The notes beneath the pieces were generated by a model. It was not told where the DNA came from, ran no database searches, and saw only the letters and a list, made by a program, of their open reading frames with translations. Of a DNA stretch of 64,000 nt, positions 1 to 34,020 are shown one piece after another (position 1 is the first letter of the stretch; the number at the start of each line of letters is the position of its first letter). Both the position numbers and the translations under genes were made by a program. The stretch lies in NCBI RefSeq assembly GCF_003019035.1, contig NZ_CP027447.1, one strand, 5' to 3'. The stretch comes from Escherichia coli. Its GTDB lineage: Bacteria > Pseudomonadota > Gammaproteobacteria > Enterobacterales > Enterobacteriaceae.

Positions 1-446
1 GCGCCCATTAACTGCAAATTCAGTAACATCGGTAACCCACTTCTCGTTTGGCCGCGTAGCCTTGAAATCTCTTTGGAGAACATTAGGGGCGGTTTGCCCT
101 ACCTCTCCTCTGTAAGAGCGGTATCGCTTGACCTTAATCGCTGCTTTAAGTGAGAGGGTTCCCATCAGGCGCTGAACAGCTTTATGGTTAATCTGTTTCC
201 CTTCTCGATGAAGAGACAGCGTTACCCTACGGTATCCGTATCGGCCTCTATTCTCATGATAAATCTCACCAATACGCTTTTTAACGTCCGCATACTTGTC
301 AGGCTTGCTGAGCCTTTAGATGGTAATAAAACGTACTGCGCGGTATCTCCGCAGCCCTGAGAAGCTCATCAAGAGGATAAAACTGCCTTAGCTCGTTGAG
401 TACTTTCACTTTTTCGTGGGATGAACTAAGGCTTTCAGCTTTTTTA
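1..446 (-). CDS. insK: IS150 transposase OrfB (InsK), N-terminal part only; expressed as an OrfAB fusion by -1 frameshifting; truncated by window edge
   Basis: Open frame in the -1 frame relative to insJ downstream of the slippery heptamer; no ATG of its own, as expected for IS3-family OrfB. Confidence 0.6.
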
Positions 447-927
447 GATACATAAGCCGCGTTTCAAGAAATCGAACTTGCCTTTCAAGATCCTCAATGC
501 GTCGGTCTTTTGACAGCTCCAATGCTGATGCCGCTTTTTCTGGATCAACTGATATTGCAATGTTTCTTTTGGTGCCAATCTTGAGCGCGCGTAAACCAGC
601 TTCTCCGCGCTCTTCATAGACCTTCAGCCACCTGGCTACAGAACCACTACCAGCAAGCATAAAGTGAGCAGCAGCCTGATTAAGGGACATGTGCTGCTCG
701 ATCACAGCTTTCACGACCTTAATACGCAATTCTGGATCAGCACTAACGCCTTTAGGTTTGGGAATTAAACCTTTTTCTCCATGTTTTTCATAGAGGGCAA
801 CCCATGTCCTGACCTGGGTTCGGGGGACACCAAAACGTGCCGAGATGATCCTGTAACCATCATCAGTTGTGAAGTAGTGATTCACGACTTCAAGGCGCTT
901 TTCAAAAGGGTATTTTGGCTTTGACAT
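406..927 (-). CDS. insJ: IS150 transposase OrfA (InsJ), HTH DNA-binding subunit
   Basis: 173-aa ORF MSKPKYPFEKRLEVVNHYF... recognised as IS150 InsJ. Confidence 0.9.
   Translation of the reverse strand: MSKPKYPFEKRLEVVNHYFTTDDGYRIISARFGVPRTQVRTWVALYEKHGEKGLIPKPKGVSADPELRIKVVKAVIEQHMSLNQAAAHFMLAGSGSVARWLKVYEERGEAGLRALKIGTKRNIAISVDPEKAASALELSKDRRIEDLERQVRFLETRLMYLKKLKALVHPTKK
439..445 (-). other. A-AAA-AAG slippery heptamer, programmed -1 ribosomal frameshift site of IS150 orfA/orfB
   Basis: Plus strand CTTTTTT at 439-445 is AAAAAAG on the coding strand, about 10 codons before the insJ stop. Confidence 0.6.
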
Positions 928-1188
928 ATTAGGGGCTATTCCATTTCATCGTCCAACAAAATGGGTGCAGTACACACTTTGATTTATAGTCAGGTGGGGC
1001 TTTTCTCTGTCTGCCTTTCGGTGAATACCTGAGACAAACAGTCTCAAGCACCCGTGGCTATTCTGGCTTAATAAGTTCGTTTCTTCTCCTTGATATAATC
1101 CTAAAAAAATCTCATAAAATTAATATATGAGACAATCTTTATTCAGCAGAAGATTATTAAAGGTTGCTCTATTATTTAGCGATAAAAA

Positions 1189-1225: not shown

Positions 1226-3295
1226 TTACTGTAACAGCGAAATATCCGCAACTCGCAGGAATAATTCGCGCAGTTTCTCCAGCATGGTAAGACGGTTGAT
1301 TCGCAATTCTTTGTCATCAACCATGACCATCACTTTATCGAAGAAGGCATCAACCGGTTCACGCAGCTCAGCCAGTTCGACCAGCGCATCCTGGTAACGA
1401 CCTTCAGCAAAGTACGGCTCTAGCTTGTCACGTAGCACCACAACCTGCATCGCCAGTTTAATTTCTTCCGGCTCTTTCAGAGTAGAGGCATTCACGCGGT
1501 CGCTCAGCACTTCGTCAGATTTCGCCAGAATGTTAGATACACGCTTGTTCGCCGCCGCCAGTGCTGCAGCTGCATCCAGGGTACGGAAGTGCGATACCGC
1601 TTTCATTCGGGCATCGAAATCAGCCGGACGAGTCGGACGACGCGCCAGTACCGCCTGGATGGTGTCAACGGTGTAACCTTCGTCCTGATACCAGGCGCGG
1701 AAGCGACCGAGCATAAAGTCGATAACATCATCAACCACGTTGGCATTAGTCAGCTTATCGCCATACAGACGCACTGCTTCTTCGGTCAGGGTTTGCAGGT
1801 CAAGATTGAGGTTCTTCTCAACGATAATACGCAGCACGCCAAGTGCGGCACGACGCAGCGCAAACGGGTCTTTGTCGCCTTTCGGATGCTGGCCGATACC
1901 GAAGATACCCGCCAGGGTATCCATCTTGTCAGCAATCGCCAGCGCACAGGCTACCGGGTTAGACGGCAGGTCATCACCGGCAAAGCGCGGCTGATACTGC
2001 TCGTTCAGCGCCACGGCAACATCTTCCGCTTCGCCATCGTGACGCGCGTAGTGCATCCCCATAACGCCCTGGGTGTCGGTGAACTCGAAGACCATGTTGG
2101 TCATCAGGTCGCACTTGGACAGCAGGCCCGCACGGGTAGCGTGGTTAACGTCAGCGCCAATCTGTTCAGCAATCCAGCCAGCCAGCGCCTGGATGCGGTC
2201 AGTCTTGTCACGCAGCGTACCCAGCTGTTGCTGGAACAGCACGGTTTGCAGGCGCGGCAGGTTATCTTCCAGACGTTTTTTACGGTCGGTGTTGAAGAAG
2301 AACTCGGCATCCGCCAAACGTGGACGAACGACTTTCTCGTTACCAGAGATAATTTGCTGCGGATCTTTCGATTCGATGTTGGCAACGAAGATAAAGTTCG
2401 GCAGCAGTTTGCCGTCGTTCGCATACACCGGGAAGTACTTCTGGTCACCTTTCATGGTGTAAACCAGTGCTTCAGACGGCACCGCGAGGAATTTCTCTTC
2501 GAATTTCGCGGTCAGAACGACCGGCCACTCCACCAGCGAAGCCACTTCTTCCAGCAGGCTTTCGCTTAAGTCAGCGTTACCGCCAATCTTACGCGCCGCT
2601 TCTTCGGCATCGGCTTTAATCTTCGCCTTACGTTCTTCGTAATCGGCGATGACTTTCCCGCGCTCACGCAGAATTTCCGGATACTGATCAGCATTGTCGA
2701 TAGTGAATTCCGACTCGCCCATAAAGCGGTGGCCGCGAATCACGCGATCGGACTGAATACCCAGAATGGTAGCCGGAATAACTTTGTCGCCCAGCAGCAG
2801 GGTCACGGTGTGAACCGGACGCACGAAGTGCACGTCGCTTGCGCCCCAGCGCATCAGTTTCGGGATCGGCAGTTTCGCCAGCGAAGTCGCAACCATATTC
2901 GGCAGCAGTGCTTCGGTGCTTTCGCCCTTCACGTGGGCGCGATACAGCAGCCATTCGCCTTTATCGGTAGTCAGACGCTCAGCCTGGTCAACGGTAATAC
3001 CGCAACCACGCGCCCAGCCTTCTGCCGCTTTGCTCGGTTTGCCTTCAGCGTCGAACGCCTGGGCAATCGCCGGGCCGCGTTTTTCGATTTCACGATCCGG
3101 TTGCGCTTCCGCCAGGTTACCTACTTTCAGCGCCAGACGACGCGGAGCAGCAAACCATTGAACGGTGCCGTGTGCGAGGCCAGCGTTATCCAGCTCCGCA
3201 GTAAAGTTCGCAGCAAAGGACTCAGCCAGGCTGCGCAGTGCTTTTGGTGGCAGCTCTTCAGTGCCGATTTCCACCAGAAAAGTTTTCTCAGACAT
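1226..3295 (-). CDS. glyS: Glycine--tRNA ligase beta subunit
   Basis: 689-aa [23 protein letters not shown]...; immediately downstream of glyQ on the same strand. Confidence 0.97.
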
Positions 3296-16315: not shown

Positions 16316-18346
16316 ATGAAACTCGCCGCCTGTTTTCTGACACTCCTTCCTGGCTTCGCCGTTGCCGCCAGCTGGACTTCTCCGGGGTTTCCCGCCTTTA
16401 GCGAACAGGGGACGGGAACATTTGTCAGCCACGCACAGTTGCCCAAAGGTACGCGTCCACTAACGCTAAATTTTGACCAACAGTGCTGGCAGCCTGCGGA
16501 TGCGATAAAACTCAATCAGATGCTTTCCCTGCAACCTTGTAGCAACACGCCGCCTCAATGGCGATTGTTCAGGGACGGCGAATATACGCTGCAACTAGAC
16601 ACCCGCTCCGGTACACCAACATTGATGATTTCCATCCAGAACGCCGTCGAACCGGTAGCAAGCCTGGTCCGTGAATGCCCGAAATGGGATGGATTACCGC
16701 TCACACTGGATGTCAGCGCCACTTTTCCGGAGGGAGCCGCAGTCCGGGATTATTACAGCCAGCAAATTGCGATAGTGAAGAACGGTCAAATAACGTTACA
16801 ACCCGCTGCCACCAGCAACGGTTTACTCCTGCTGGAACGGGCAGAAACTGACGCCTCTGCCCCTTTCGACTGGCATAACGCCACGGTTTACTTTGTGCTG
16901 ACAGATCGTTTCGAAAACGGCGATCCCAGTAATGACCAGAGTTACGGACGTCATAAAGACGGTATGGCAGAAATTGGCACTTTTCACGGCGGCGATTTAC
17001 GCGGCCTGACCAACAAACTGGATTACCTCCAGCAGCTGGGCGTCAATGCTTTATGGATAAGTGCCCCATTTGAGCAAATTCACGGCTGGGTCGGCGGCGG
17101 TACAAAAGGCGATTTCCCGCATTATGCCTACCACGGTTATTACACACAGGACTGGACGAATCTTGATGCCAATATGGGCCGCGAAGCCGATCTACGGACG
17201 CTGGTTGATAGCGCGCATCAGCGCGGTATTCGTATTCTCTTTGATGTCGTGATGAACCACACTGGCTATGCCACGCTGGCGGATATGCAGGAGTATCAGT
17301 TTGGCGCGTTATATCTTTCTGGTGACGAAGTGAAAAAAACGTTGGGTGAACGCTGGAGCGACTGGAAACCTGCCGCCGGGCAAACCTGGCATAGCTTTAA
17401 CGATTACATTAATTTCAGCGACAAAACAGGCTGGGATAAATGGTGGGGAAAAAACTGGATCAGAACCGATATCGGCGATTACGACAATCCTGGATTCGAC
17501 GATCTCACTATGTCGCTGGCCTTTTTGCCGGATATCAAAACCGAATCAACGACCGCTTCTGGTCTGCCGGTGTTCTATAAAAACAAAACGGATACCCACG
17601 CTAAAGTCATCGACAGCTTTACCCCTCGCGATTACTTAACCCACTGGTTAAGTCAGTGGGTTCACGACTATGGGATTGATGGTTTTCGGGTCGACACCGC
17701 CAAACATGTTGAGTTGCCCGCCTGGCAGCAACTGAAAACCGAAGCCAGCGCCGCACTTCGCGAATGGAAAAAAGCTAACCCCGACAAAACATTAGATGAC
17801 AAACCGTTCTGGATGACCGGTGAAGCCTGGGGCCACGGCGTGATGCAAAGTGACTACTATCGCCACGGCTTCGATGCGATGATCAATTTCGATTATCAGG
17901 AGCAGGCGGCTAAAGCAGTCGATTGTCTGGCGCAGATGGATACGACCTGGCAGCAAATGGCGGAGAAATTGCAGGATTTCAACGTGTTGAGCTACCTCTC
18001 GTCGCATGATACCCGCCTGTTCCGTGAAGGGGGCGACAAAGCAGCAGAGTTATTATTATTAGCGCCAGGCGCGGTTCAAATCTTTTATGGTGATGAATCC
18101 TCGCGTCCGTTCGGCCCCACCGGTTCGGATCCACTGCAAGGCACGCGTTCGGATATGAACTGGCAGGATGTTAGCGGTAAATCTGCCGCCAGCGTCGCGC
18201 ACTGGCAGAAAATCAGCCAGTTCCGCGCCCGCCATCCCGCAATTGGCGCGGGCAAACAAACGACACTTTCGCTGAAGCAGGGCTACGGCTTTGTTCGTGA
18301 GCATGGCGACGATAAAGTGCTGGTCATCTGGGCAGGGCAACAGTAA
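16316..18346 (+). CDS. malS: Periplasmic alpha-amylase
   Basis: 676-aa ORF with signal peptide and GH13 motifs (GFRVDTAKH etc.). Confidence 0.95.
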   Translation: MKLAACFLTLLPGFAVAASWTSPGFPAFSEQGTGTFVSHAQLPKGTRPLTLNFDQQCWQPADAIKLNQMLSLQPCSNTPPQWRLFRDGEYTLQLDTRSGTPTLMISIQNAVEPVASLVRECPKWDGLPLTLDVSATFPEGAAVRDYYSQQIAIVKNGQITLQPAATSNGLLLLERAETDASAPFDWHNATVYFVLTDRFENGDPSNDQSYGRHKDGMAEIGTFHGGDLRGLTNKLDYLQQLGVNALWISAPFEQIHGWVGGGTKGDFPHYAYHGYYTQDWTNLDANMGREADLRTLVDSAHQRGIRILFDVVMNHTGYATLADMQEYQFGALYLSGDEVKKTLGERWSDWKPAAGQTWHSFNDYINFSDKTGWDKWWGKNWIRTDIGDYDNPGFDDLTMSLAFLPDIKTESTTASGLPVFYKNKTDTHAKVIDSFTPRDYLTHWLSQWVHDYGIDGFRVDTAKHVELPAWQQLKTEASAALREWKKANPDKTLDDKPFWMTGEAWGHGVMQSDYYRHGFDAMINFDYQEQAAKAVDCLAQMDTTWQQMAEKLQDFNVLSYLSSHDTRLFREGGDKAAELLLLAPGAVQIFYGDESSRPFGPTGSDPLQGTRSDMNWQDVSGKSAASVAHWQKISQFRARHPAIGAGKQTTLSLKQGYGFVREHGDDKVLVIWAGQQ

Positions 18347-31971: not shown

Positions 31972-33951
31972 ATGAACATTTCGGAAGTCGATCTGCATAA
32001 ACTGACGGTCAGCGATCCGTTCCTCGGTCAGTACCAACAACTGGTCCGCGACGTGGTGATTCCTTATCAGTGGGATGCCTTGAACGATCGTATCCCAGAA
32101 GCGGAACCCAGCCATGCGATTGAAAACTTTCGCATTGCCGCCGGACTTCAGGAGGGTGAATTTTACGGGATGGTGTTTCAGGACAGCGACGTCGCCAAAT
32201 GGCTGGAAGCGGTAGCCTGGTCGCTGTGCCAGAAGCCGGACGCCGAACTGGAAAAAACCGCCGACGAGGTGATTGAACTGATCGCTTCCGCCCAGTGCGA
32301 AGATGGCTATCTCAATACTTACTTTACGGTAAAAGCGCCCGAAGAACGCTGGAGCAATCTGGCGGAGTGCCATGAACTTTACTGCGCCGGTCATCTGATT
32401 GAAGCCGGAGTCGCCTTCTTCCAGGCCACGGGCAAGCGGCGCTTGCTGGAAGTGGTTTGCCGTCTGACCGATCATATCGACAGCGTATTTGGTCCAGGTG
32501 AAAGTAAGTTACACGGTTATCCTGGTCACCCGGAAATTGAACTGGCACTAATGCGCCTGTATGAAGTGACCGAAGAGCCGCGCTACCTGGCGCTGACGAA
32601 CTATTTTGTCGAACAGCGTGGTGCGCAACCGCACTATTACGACCAGGAATATGAAAAGCGCGGGCAGACCTCGCACTGGCACACCTACGGCCCGGCGTGG
32701 ATGGTGAAAGACAAAGCCTACAGCCAGGCACATTTGCCCATCGCACAGCAGCAAACCGCCATTGGTCACGCGGTACGTTTTGTCTACCTGATGACCGGCG
32801 TCGCGCATCTCGCCCGTTTAAGTCACGATGAAAGCAAGCGTCAGGATTGCTTGCGGCTGTGGAACAATATGGCCCAGCGTCAGTTATATATTACCGGCGG
32901 CATTGGCTCACAAAGCAGCGGCGAAGCGTTCAGCAGCGATTACGATCTGCCGAATGACACGGTTTACGCCGAAAGTTGTGCTTCCATCGGCCTGATGATG
33001 TTCGCCCGACGAATGCTGGAAATGGAAGGCGACAGTCAATATGCCGATGTGATGGAGCGCGCGCTGTACAACACTGTGCTCGGCGGCATGGCACTGGATG
33101 GCAAACATTTCTTCTATGTGAATCCGCTGGAAGTACATCCAAAATCGCTGAAATTCAACCATATCTACGATCACGTTAAGCCGATCCGCCAGCGTTGGTT
33201 TGGCTGCGCTTGTTGTCCGCCAAATATCGCCCGCGTACTGACCTCGATTGGTCATTATCTCTACACGCCGCGTGAAGATGCGTTGTATATCAACATATAC
33301 GCAGGAAACAGCATGGAAGTGCCGGTAGAAAATGGCACGTTGCGCCTGCGGGTTAGCGGGAACTATCCGTGGCAGGAACAGGTGACAATTGCGGTTGAAT
33401 CGCCCCAGCCGGTGCGTCATACGCTGGCTTTACGTCTGCCGGACTGGTGCACACAGCCGCAGATCATATTGAATGGGGAAGAGGTCGAGCAGGATATTCG
33501 TAAAGGGTATTTGCACATTACCCGCGAATGGCAGGAGGGCGACACGCTGAATCTAACTTTGCCAATGCCAGTACGTCGCGTTTACGGTAACCCGCTGGTG
33601 CGTCACGTCGCCGGAAAAGTGGCGATTCAGCGCGGCCCGCTGGTGTATTGCCTGGAACAGGCCGACAACGGCGAGTCACTGCATAACCTGTGGCTGCCCG
33701 CCGATGCGCCATTTACGACATTTGAAGGCAAGGGATTGTTCCGCCATAAGATCTTAATCCAGGCACCGGGTTACCGGTATGAACAGAGCAATCCAGAGCA
33801 GCAACCGCTGTGGCATTACGACAGTGCGCCAGCCAAACGCCAGCCGCAAACTCTGACGTTTATTCCGTGGTTTAGCTGGGCTAACCAGGGTGAAGGCGAA
33901 ATGCGGATCTGGGTGAATGAGGAAAAGCATTGCCATCCGGAGGTTGGATAA
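31972..33951 (+). CDS. Glycoside hydrolase family 127 (DUF1680; beta-L-arabinofuranosidase HypBA1-like); start at the ATG preceded by AGGAG
   Basis: 659-aa protein; E-S-C and C-A-C-C-P-P-N motifs about 77 residues apart match the GH127 Glu/Cys3 zinc-cysteine catalytic centre. Confidence 0.75.
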   Translation: MNISEVDLHKLTVSDPFLGQYQQLVRDVVIPYQWDALNDRIPEAEPSHAIENFRIAAGLQEGEFYGMVFQDSDVAKWLEAVAWSLCQKPDAELEKTADEVIELIASAQCEDGYLNTYFTVKAPEERWSNLAECHELYCAGHLIEAGVAFFQATGKRRLLEVVCRLTDHIDSVFGPGESKLHGYPGHPEIELALMRLYEVTEEPRYLALTNYFVEQRGAQPHYYDQEYEKRGQTSHWHTYGPAWMVKDKAYSQAHLPIAQQQTAIGHAVRFVYLMTGVAHLARLSHDESKRQDCLRLWNNMAQRQLYITGGIGSQSSGEAFSSDYDLPNDTVYAESCASIGLMMFARRMLEMEGDSQYADVMERALYNTVLGGMALDGKHFFYVNPLEVHPKSLKFNHIYDHVKPIRQRWFGCACCPPNIARVLTSIGHYLYTPREDALYINIYAGNSMEVPVENGTLRLRVSGNYPWQEQVTIAVESPQPVRHTLALRLPDWCTQPQIILNGEEVEQDIRKGYLHITREWQEGDTLNLTLPMPVRRVYGNPLVRHVAGKVAIQRGPLVYCLEQADNGESLHNLWLPADAPFTTFEGKGLFRHKILIQAPGYRYEQSNPEQQPLWHYDSAPAKRQPQTLTFIPWFSWANQGEGEMRIWVNEEKHCHPEVG

Positions 33952-34020
33952 GGCGCTCGCGCCGCATCCAACGTAGGGAGCACATTGCCTGATGCGACGC
34001 TTAACGCGTCTTATCAGGCC
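33936..34020. repeat. BIME-like pair of REP palindromic units overlapping the 3' end of the GH127 gene
   Basis: GCCTGATGCGACGCTTAACGCGTCTTATCAGGCC (33987-34020) is a canonical REP; an imperfect inverted copy lies at 33940-33975. Confidence 0.6.

Follow-up and report, generated by a model that had tools for sequence, protein, structure and literature searches.

An IS150 copy in the hokA/sokA leader of Escherichia coli, its orientation opposite to that in K-12, and a possible origin of the K-12 arrangement

The stretch of E. coli DNA analysed here (the window, 64 kb in full) opens inside a copy of IS150, an element of the IS3 family, which lies on the minus strand at the hokA-glyS locus and interrupts the type I toxin-antitoxin module hokA/sokA (Table 1). 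Alignment to the 1443-bp IS150 of K-12 places window base 1 at IS position 976 and window base 974 at IS position 1, with the rest of the element falling outside the window. E. coli SCU-301 (NZ_CP051751.1), isolated from a rectal swab of a healthy student in California, matches the window with 100% identity, and the part of the element missing from the window was read from the SCU-301 record (L002). The complete element is 1441 bp long and differs from the K-12 IS150 by 10 substitutions and one 2-bp deletion over 1443 positions; IS150 occurs at one location only on the SCU-301 chromosome. Elsewhere in the window, at 33942-34020 (+), lies a match to naRNA4, a REP-derived nucleoid-associated ncRNA (Rfam RF02564; score 71.6 bits, threshold 59).

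Table 1. Features at the start of the window, with the basis of each assignment
Feature	Coordinates	Strand	Basis and remarks
IS150	1..974	-	Alignment to K-12 IS150; remaining 465 bp upstream of the window
insK (orfB), 5' part	1..409, start at 409	-	Alignment; frame broken by 2-bp deletion
insJ (orfA)	406..927	-	173-aa intact ORF; translation comparison; Pfam HTH_28/HTH_29
Programmed -1 frameshift heptamer A AAA AAG	439..445	-	Read from sequence; IS positions 530-536
IRL, left terminal inverted repeat	941..974	-	Identical to K-12 IRL; tip TGTACTGCACCC at 974..963
Target-site duplication, right copy CACTT	975..979		Comparison with empty sites
hokA mRNA 5' leader / sokA 3' remnant	975..1053	-	Rfam RF01794 (sok); severed from mokA-hokA by the IS
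glyS	1226..3295	-	689-aa ORF and RefSeq annotation; orientation reference

By every sequence criterion tested this element is IS150, yet it is defective. It is nearly identical to the ~1443-bp reference and has the imperfect terminal inverted repeats of the form 5'-TG...CA-3', of which the IRL tip is the sole IS150 end within the window, and the IRR, TGTACTGACCCC, begins at L002:5534. The two reading frames, in 0 and -1 register, are joined by the slippery heptamer, and a -1 slip at this heptamer reconstructed the 456-aa fusion of K-12. InsJ differs from its K-12 counterpart only by A168V and contains a helix-turn-helix (Pfam HTH_28, 4e-23). The lesion lies in insK, where 2 bp are deleted between window positions 312 and 313 (IS positions 663-664), ~33 codons into the gene. 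On translation, the InsJK fusion ends at 209 aa as against 456 in K-12 and InsK alone ends at 36 aa, while the DDE (rve) core of OrfB is still scored by Pfam (4e-29) in the frame downstream of the deletion and is out of frame with the part before it. An intact transposase, as in an autonomous element, was not found in this copy, which belongs to IS150 by descent, and RefSeq annotates the element in SCU-301 as a frameshifted pseudogene. The 2-bp deletion, which is private to this copy, truncates InsJK, so that the copy cannot move by itself; judged from its sequence, it is an ordinary IS150 that has already been inactivated. No such deletion is present in IAI39, LF4-1, YDC107, Z0117EC0005 and ST540, all of which have the element in the orientation of the window with an intact programmed-frameshift transposase. 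Both this lesion and the nature of the target had been overlooked in the initial annotation.

The target is the leader of hokA/sokA, which IS150 enters ~80 nt downstream of the start of the hokA mRNA, at a position that we term site P. The part of the locus left on the glyS side was recognized by the Rfam model for sok (RF01794) with 82.7 bits against a threshold of 59. This hit spans 898-1053 (-), but only model positions 1 to ~83 fall on the leader itself; the remainder, model positions ~84 to 157 on 898-974, reaches 77 nt into IS150 and was rejected as a forced alignment to unrelated IS sequence, over which an automated annotation would wrongly extend 'sok'. The hokA gene is annotated 74 bp past the far IS end in the source genome, and the locus retains both the sok leader and a downstream hok ORF, split by the IS. 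Empty sites read GGGGCCTCACTTTGATTT (fuller context, GGGGCCTCACTTTGATTTATAG). Since CACTT stands on both sides of the element when compared with these empty sites (left copy at L002:5529-5533, outside the window), we interpret the window allele as a simple insertion that duplicated 5 bp of its target; the same appearance might also have arisen from a 3-bp duplication with later slippage of the terminal CA. The IRR of the window copy points toward the hairpin of the hok leader and the IRL toward glyS. In this position IS150 should cut the hokA promoter and 5' leader off mokA/hokA and split sokA, with silencing of the module as the likely consequence. Silencing of hokA by IS150 has been described for K-12, and the case of hokA/IS150 is said to have been treated by Pedersen and Gerdes in 1999. 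Scanning for promoters and terminators gave no usable prediction in either the hokA leader or the flank of the window. A small annotated ORF (ysaE or hypothetical protein, 19-23 aa) runs antisense over the 3' end of hokA (L001:3401-3472) in all inspected genomes.

The initial annotation had recognized IS150 by its insJ, frameshift heptamer and terminal repeat, all of which were confirmed by our alignment and ORFs, and had proposed that the element is oriented opposite to that of K-12. The MG1655 annotation bears this out: IS150 (insJ b3557, insK b3558) lies at 3720633-3722075 on the plus strand and glyS on the minus strand, which means that insJ and insK read toward glyS in MG1655 and away from it in the window, where the insJ and IRL side of the element faces the 3' end of glyS. 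The other end of the element and its copy of the target duplication, sought upstream of the window, were found at the positions in SCU-301 given above. The suggestion that this might be a lineage with multiple IS150 copies did not hold, as the source chromosome has a single IS150. Two further suggestions survive in part. Independent insertion is in keeping with a hot spot that has been hit repeatedly, with at least four junction types; inversion comes closest to the difference between the window and K-12, but it is the K-12 form that appears to be derived, and the change is no simple inversion. The two copies are alike in their 99.2% identity, their presence at the hokA-glyS locus, their glyS-side phosphodiester bond and their two ORFs with A AAA AAG. 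The MG1655 copy is unlike that of the window in its opposite orientation, its lack of a duplication, a left end at a second position (site M, described below) and the absence of 38 bp, whereas the window copy has its 5-bp duplication, keeps the 38 bp and carries the deletion in insK.

We examined the distribution of these arrangements in a set of 5,426 complete E. coli genomes (Table 2). The named, serotyped examples of type (iii) among the matches listed belong to ST131. One of these strains, 81009, has an IS1 (768 bp, with the 8-bp duplication TGAAATTA) within the 3' end of its IS150 (L010:3863-4630); this nested IS1 is missing from most other genomes of the same junction type, and IS200C or IS1A is nested at the hokA locus in other genomes. 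The idea that type (iii) is tolerated only when insK is disrupted by IS1, owing to toxic sense read-in from the sokA promoter, was discarded, as all of the listed genomes considered (30/30) have an uninterrupted IS150 3' end. A further allele, in E. coli 200112 (NZ_CM128591.1), has no IS150 and is missing 46 bp of the hokA-glyS spacer (TTTCCA/ACTTTG), and resembles what would remain if IS150 had been excised imprecisely from a K-12-type allele, between the AAC repeats flanking it there.

Table 2. Arrangements of the hokA-glyS locus among 5,426 complete E. coli genomes
Arrangement	Junctions	Genomes	Remarks
Empty site		2,831
Window orientation		896-901
K-12 orientation		1,634-1,644
Type (i)	CACTT[IRR<-IRL]CACTTTG	231 exact matches	Window's own
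Type (ii)	CACTT[IRR<-IRL]CTTTG	631 exact matches	Window orientation, 3-bp duplication
Type (iii)	CACTT[IRL->IRR]CTTTG	95	K-12 orientation, 3-bp duplication, no deletion
Type (iv)	CGAGTA[IRL->IRR]AACTTTG	1,456 exact matches	K-12's own
Type (v)	CGAGTA[IRL->IRR]CACTTTG	76 exact matches	Includes SMS-3-5

Comparison of the junctions suggests that the copy in K-12, rather than that in the window, is the rearranged version and that the window type represents a clean primary insertion. The bond on the glyS side is identical in both (IRL/CACTTTG in the window, IRR/AACTTTG in K-12). On the other side, the K-12 junction (CGAGTA/IRL) lies 38 bp nearer to hokA and has no duplication, and K-12 is without the 38 bp AGAGG...GGGGCCT between the left end of the IS and site P; the left junctions of the window type and the K-12 type are 43 bp apart. 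On sequence grounds the window type cannot be derived from the K-12 type, as its duplication and flanks are intact. The first base flanking the K-12 element is A, where all four inspected empty alleles have C, and a consensus IRR followed by C was found in one genome only, HS-02, which belongs to a phylogroup-F-like group. The locus does not behave as an invertible switch of the fimS or hin type: the left junctions differ by 43 bp, the duplication is lost, the only recombinase at the element is the IS transposase, and both junctions are kept only in one pair of ST131 strains.

Site P (GCCTCA CTT/) and site M (GTA/AGAGGC, the left junction of K-12) lie 38-43 bp apart and flank the base of a single predicted hairpin (AGAGGC...GCCTC) in hokA, in hokC and in a plasmid hok locus, with modest z-scores of -1.1 for hokA and -1.5 for the plasmid locus. 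The K-12 element spans the two, its IRL lying at site M and its IRR at site P. IS150 has entered site P, a hot spot, in both orientations, with duplications of either CTT or CACTT. That site M is itself a genuine IS150 target is indicated by simple insertions at homologous positions in two plasmid hok loci. GTA is duplicated in the first, on an F-type plasmid of E. coli, and CTA in the second, on an IncFIB plasmid of Klebsiella; the IRR stands beside AGAGGC in each. The IRR points toward the hairpin in types (i) and (ii) as well as in the site-M insertions. The K. pneumoniae plasmid OW968389.1 contains a 1443-bp element with IS150 ends in a hok-like leader (L022:427-1869), with 84% identity to the query over the 143 nt matched (IRR end and flank). 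As this insertion lies at the homologue of site M, the target preference of IS150 appears to reach beyond the chromosomal hok loci of E. coli. An apparent resemblance of the target to the ends of IS150 (TCCAAC...AGTA near site M), noticed by eye, was dismissed, as its spacing does not suit an inverted repeat.

Experimental evolution of E. coli B has provided further insertions of this kind. An IS150 insertion at REL606 position 16,972 in hokC recurs in several independent lines (PMC5419217, PMC11708052) and aligns to the columns of site P, and a second laboratory hot spot (16,989/90 in hokC and 1,462,266 in hokB) falls 17 columns further into the leader. Among 54 duplications made by IS150 in the LTEE, 44 had a length of 3 bp, 6 of 4 bp and 2 of 5 bp (PMC11708052, Table S1), and 14/68 events were adjacent deletions without duplication (PMC11708052).

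Within single lineages, the same IS sequence occurs in both architectures. The IS150 of IAI39 (type (i)) is identical at 1443/1443 positions to those of SMS-3-5 and MRY15-131 (type (v)), including 18 lineage-specific SNPs; we take IAI39 and SMS-3-5 to be members of phylogroup F, and IAI39 has a single IS150 in its genome. ST540 combines type (i) junctions with an IS that is 100% identical to that of K-12, and its right flank has 7 mismatches to K-12 and 71 to the window over 2,300 bp. Two strains of ST131, 18044 with type (ii) and 81009 with type (iii), have flanks that differ at 1/2,559 positions; they share a CTT duplication and a private SNP (778A), and their IS150 copies lie in opposite orientations. 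HS-02 has the K-12 architecture with only 6/18 of the SNPs of IAI39, which suggests that its arrangement may have yet another origin. The IS150 SNPs of IAI39, HS-02 and SCU-301 do not fit any one tree: at positions 45, 107, 227 and 356, in the left half, IAI39 agrees with HS-02, and at 721 and 1430, in the right half, with SCU-301. This pattern indicates recombination between chromosomal IS150 alleles, which blurs the count of independent events.

The history that we favour, with chances that we judge to be slightly better than even, is that a copy hopped from the resident element to the mirror site M and that the resulting inverted pair then collapsed into the K-12 form. A resident type (i) copy would make a circle by the copy-out/paste-in pathway, and this circle would integrate at site M, 43 bp from the resident's own IRR and in the opposite orientation. 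The two copies would then constitute a 1.4-kb inverted repeat, separated by ~46 bp, which should be unstable and could collapse through a deletion from one of the identical 7-nt tips (CAGTACA) to the other, leaving one flipped element. The predicted product is exactly type (v). Type (iv) would correspond to this product with one base changed (A for C), for which an extra substitution or a different register of resolution would be needed. Such a conversion would have occurred more than once in E. coli. The inverted pair itself (IS150 at site M, the 38 bp still present) was found in 0 of the 5,426 genomes, the only match being a plasmid hok locus, an absence that would be expected if the pair is unstable. 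A more inclusive proposal, to which we give a little less than an even chance, is that IS150 reads the base of the hok-leader hairpin in an orientation-specific manner, IRR inward, at two mirror sites; that the resident copy repeatedly hops 43 bp and the pair collapses with loss of the 38 bp; that the textbook IS150 of K-12 is a derivative of the arrangement seen in the window; and that phylogroups A and F underwent this conversion independently of each other, the latter at least once.

The hot-spot nature of the locus could also mean that the two architectures are unrelated insertions by different IS150 copies, with K-12's having entered site M (or P) and subsequently lost the 38 bp and its duplication through an adjacent deletion. 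This explanation draws on the presence of at least four junction types, the existence of simple site-M insertions on plasmids, the frequency of IS150 adjacent deletions in the LTEE and the repeated use of the same nucleotide positions in independent populations. For the K-12 lineage taken alone, a fresh insertion at site M with an adjacent deletion to P would give the same product with no need of a resident copy. Unrelated insertions are harder to reconcile with phylogroup F, where one and the same diverged IS (18 private SNPs, 1443/1443) is found in both architectures and where the site-P resident must have served as donor, there being no other IS150 in IAI39; the identical left junction has, moreover, arisen in at least two backgrounds. 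We regard unrelated insertions as doubtful, though well within consideration.

A true inversion in place, in which recombination or transposase acts between the terminal inverted repeats and leaves the flanks unchanged, would explain the ST131 pair directly, as 18044 and 81009 have the same CTT duplication, the same 778A and flanks only 1/2559 bp apart around elements of opposite orientation. We know of no reaction of the IS3 family that flips an element in place. Such a flip cannot account for the difference between the window and K-12, where the left junction is displaced by 43 bp and no duplication is left; the tips of the inverted repeats are identical over only 7 nt. Even in ST131, re-insertion into an emptied or empty site could have produced the pair, as IS150 is also present on ST131 plasmids (PMC10591226), and inversion in place seems improbable as a general explanation. 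Misassembly around a repeat could in principle generate spurious orientation differences, and we give it next to no credence: no supporting evidence for it was found, IS150 is single-copy in the source chromosome, and each architecture recurs in between 76 and 1,456 independent assemblies, among which are the Sanger-finished genomes of IAI39, SMS-3-5 and MG1655. Of these readings, the hop to site M followed by collapse of the inverted pair remains the one that we prefer.

Several known systems resemble parts of this history. The IS150 insertions in hok/sok and ldr loci during experimental evolution of E. coli B involve the same element, the same class of target and duplications of 3-5 bp (PMC5419217, PMC11708052), but are laboratory events in other hok paralogues for which switching of orientation was not reported. 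IS1397 and ISKpn1 (PMC1525189) also have IS3-family transposases and insert in fixed orientation at a short palindromic or hairpin target; they differ in entering the loop of the REP palindrome, whereas the IS150 targets appear to flank the base of the hok-leader hairpin. The intramolecular products of IS26, IS30 and IS2/IS911 (adjacent deletions and duplicative inversions) likewise show a lost duplication, a flank removed as far as a nearby target and a new junction where the transposase prefers to insert; they yield two inverted copies, in contrast to the single flipped element here, for which the collapse step is our conjecture.

The IS150 element, the hokA/sokA locus and the textbook insertion in K-12 are already known. 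The window copy itself is of little import, being a known, annotated IS in a known target, with a junction shared by 231 genomes and an orientation shared by ~900. What is new is the recurrent switching between architectures, a modest observation that makes the origin of the K-12 arrangement a testable point; the literature searched contained reports of the experimental-evolution hot spots, and neither the orientation polymorphism nor the two-site geometry was found in it. That the single IS150 of K-12 is not a simple insertion should be of use to IS researchers and to users of the K-12 reference. With two mirror-image IS150 targets in one hokA/sokA leader and identical IS copies in both architectures within lineages, the locus is a place in nature where short-range re-transposition and the collapse of inverted IS pairs can be put to the test, and these results help to explain why chromosomal hok loci are so frequently inactivated by IS150.
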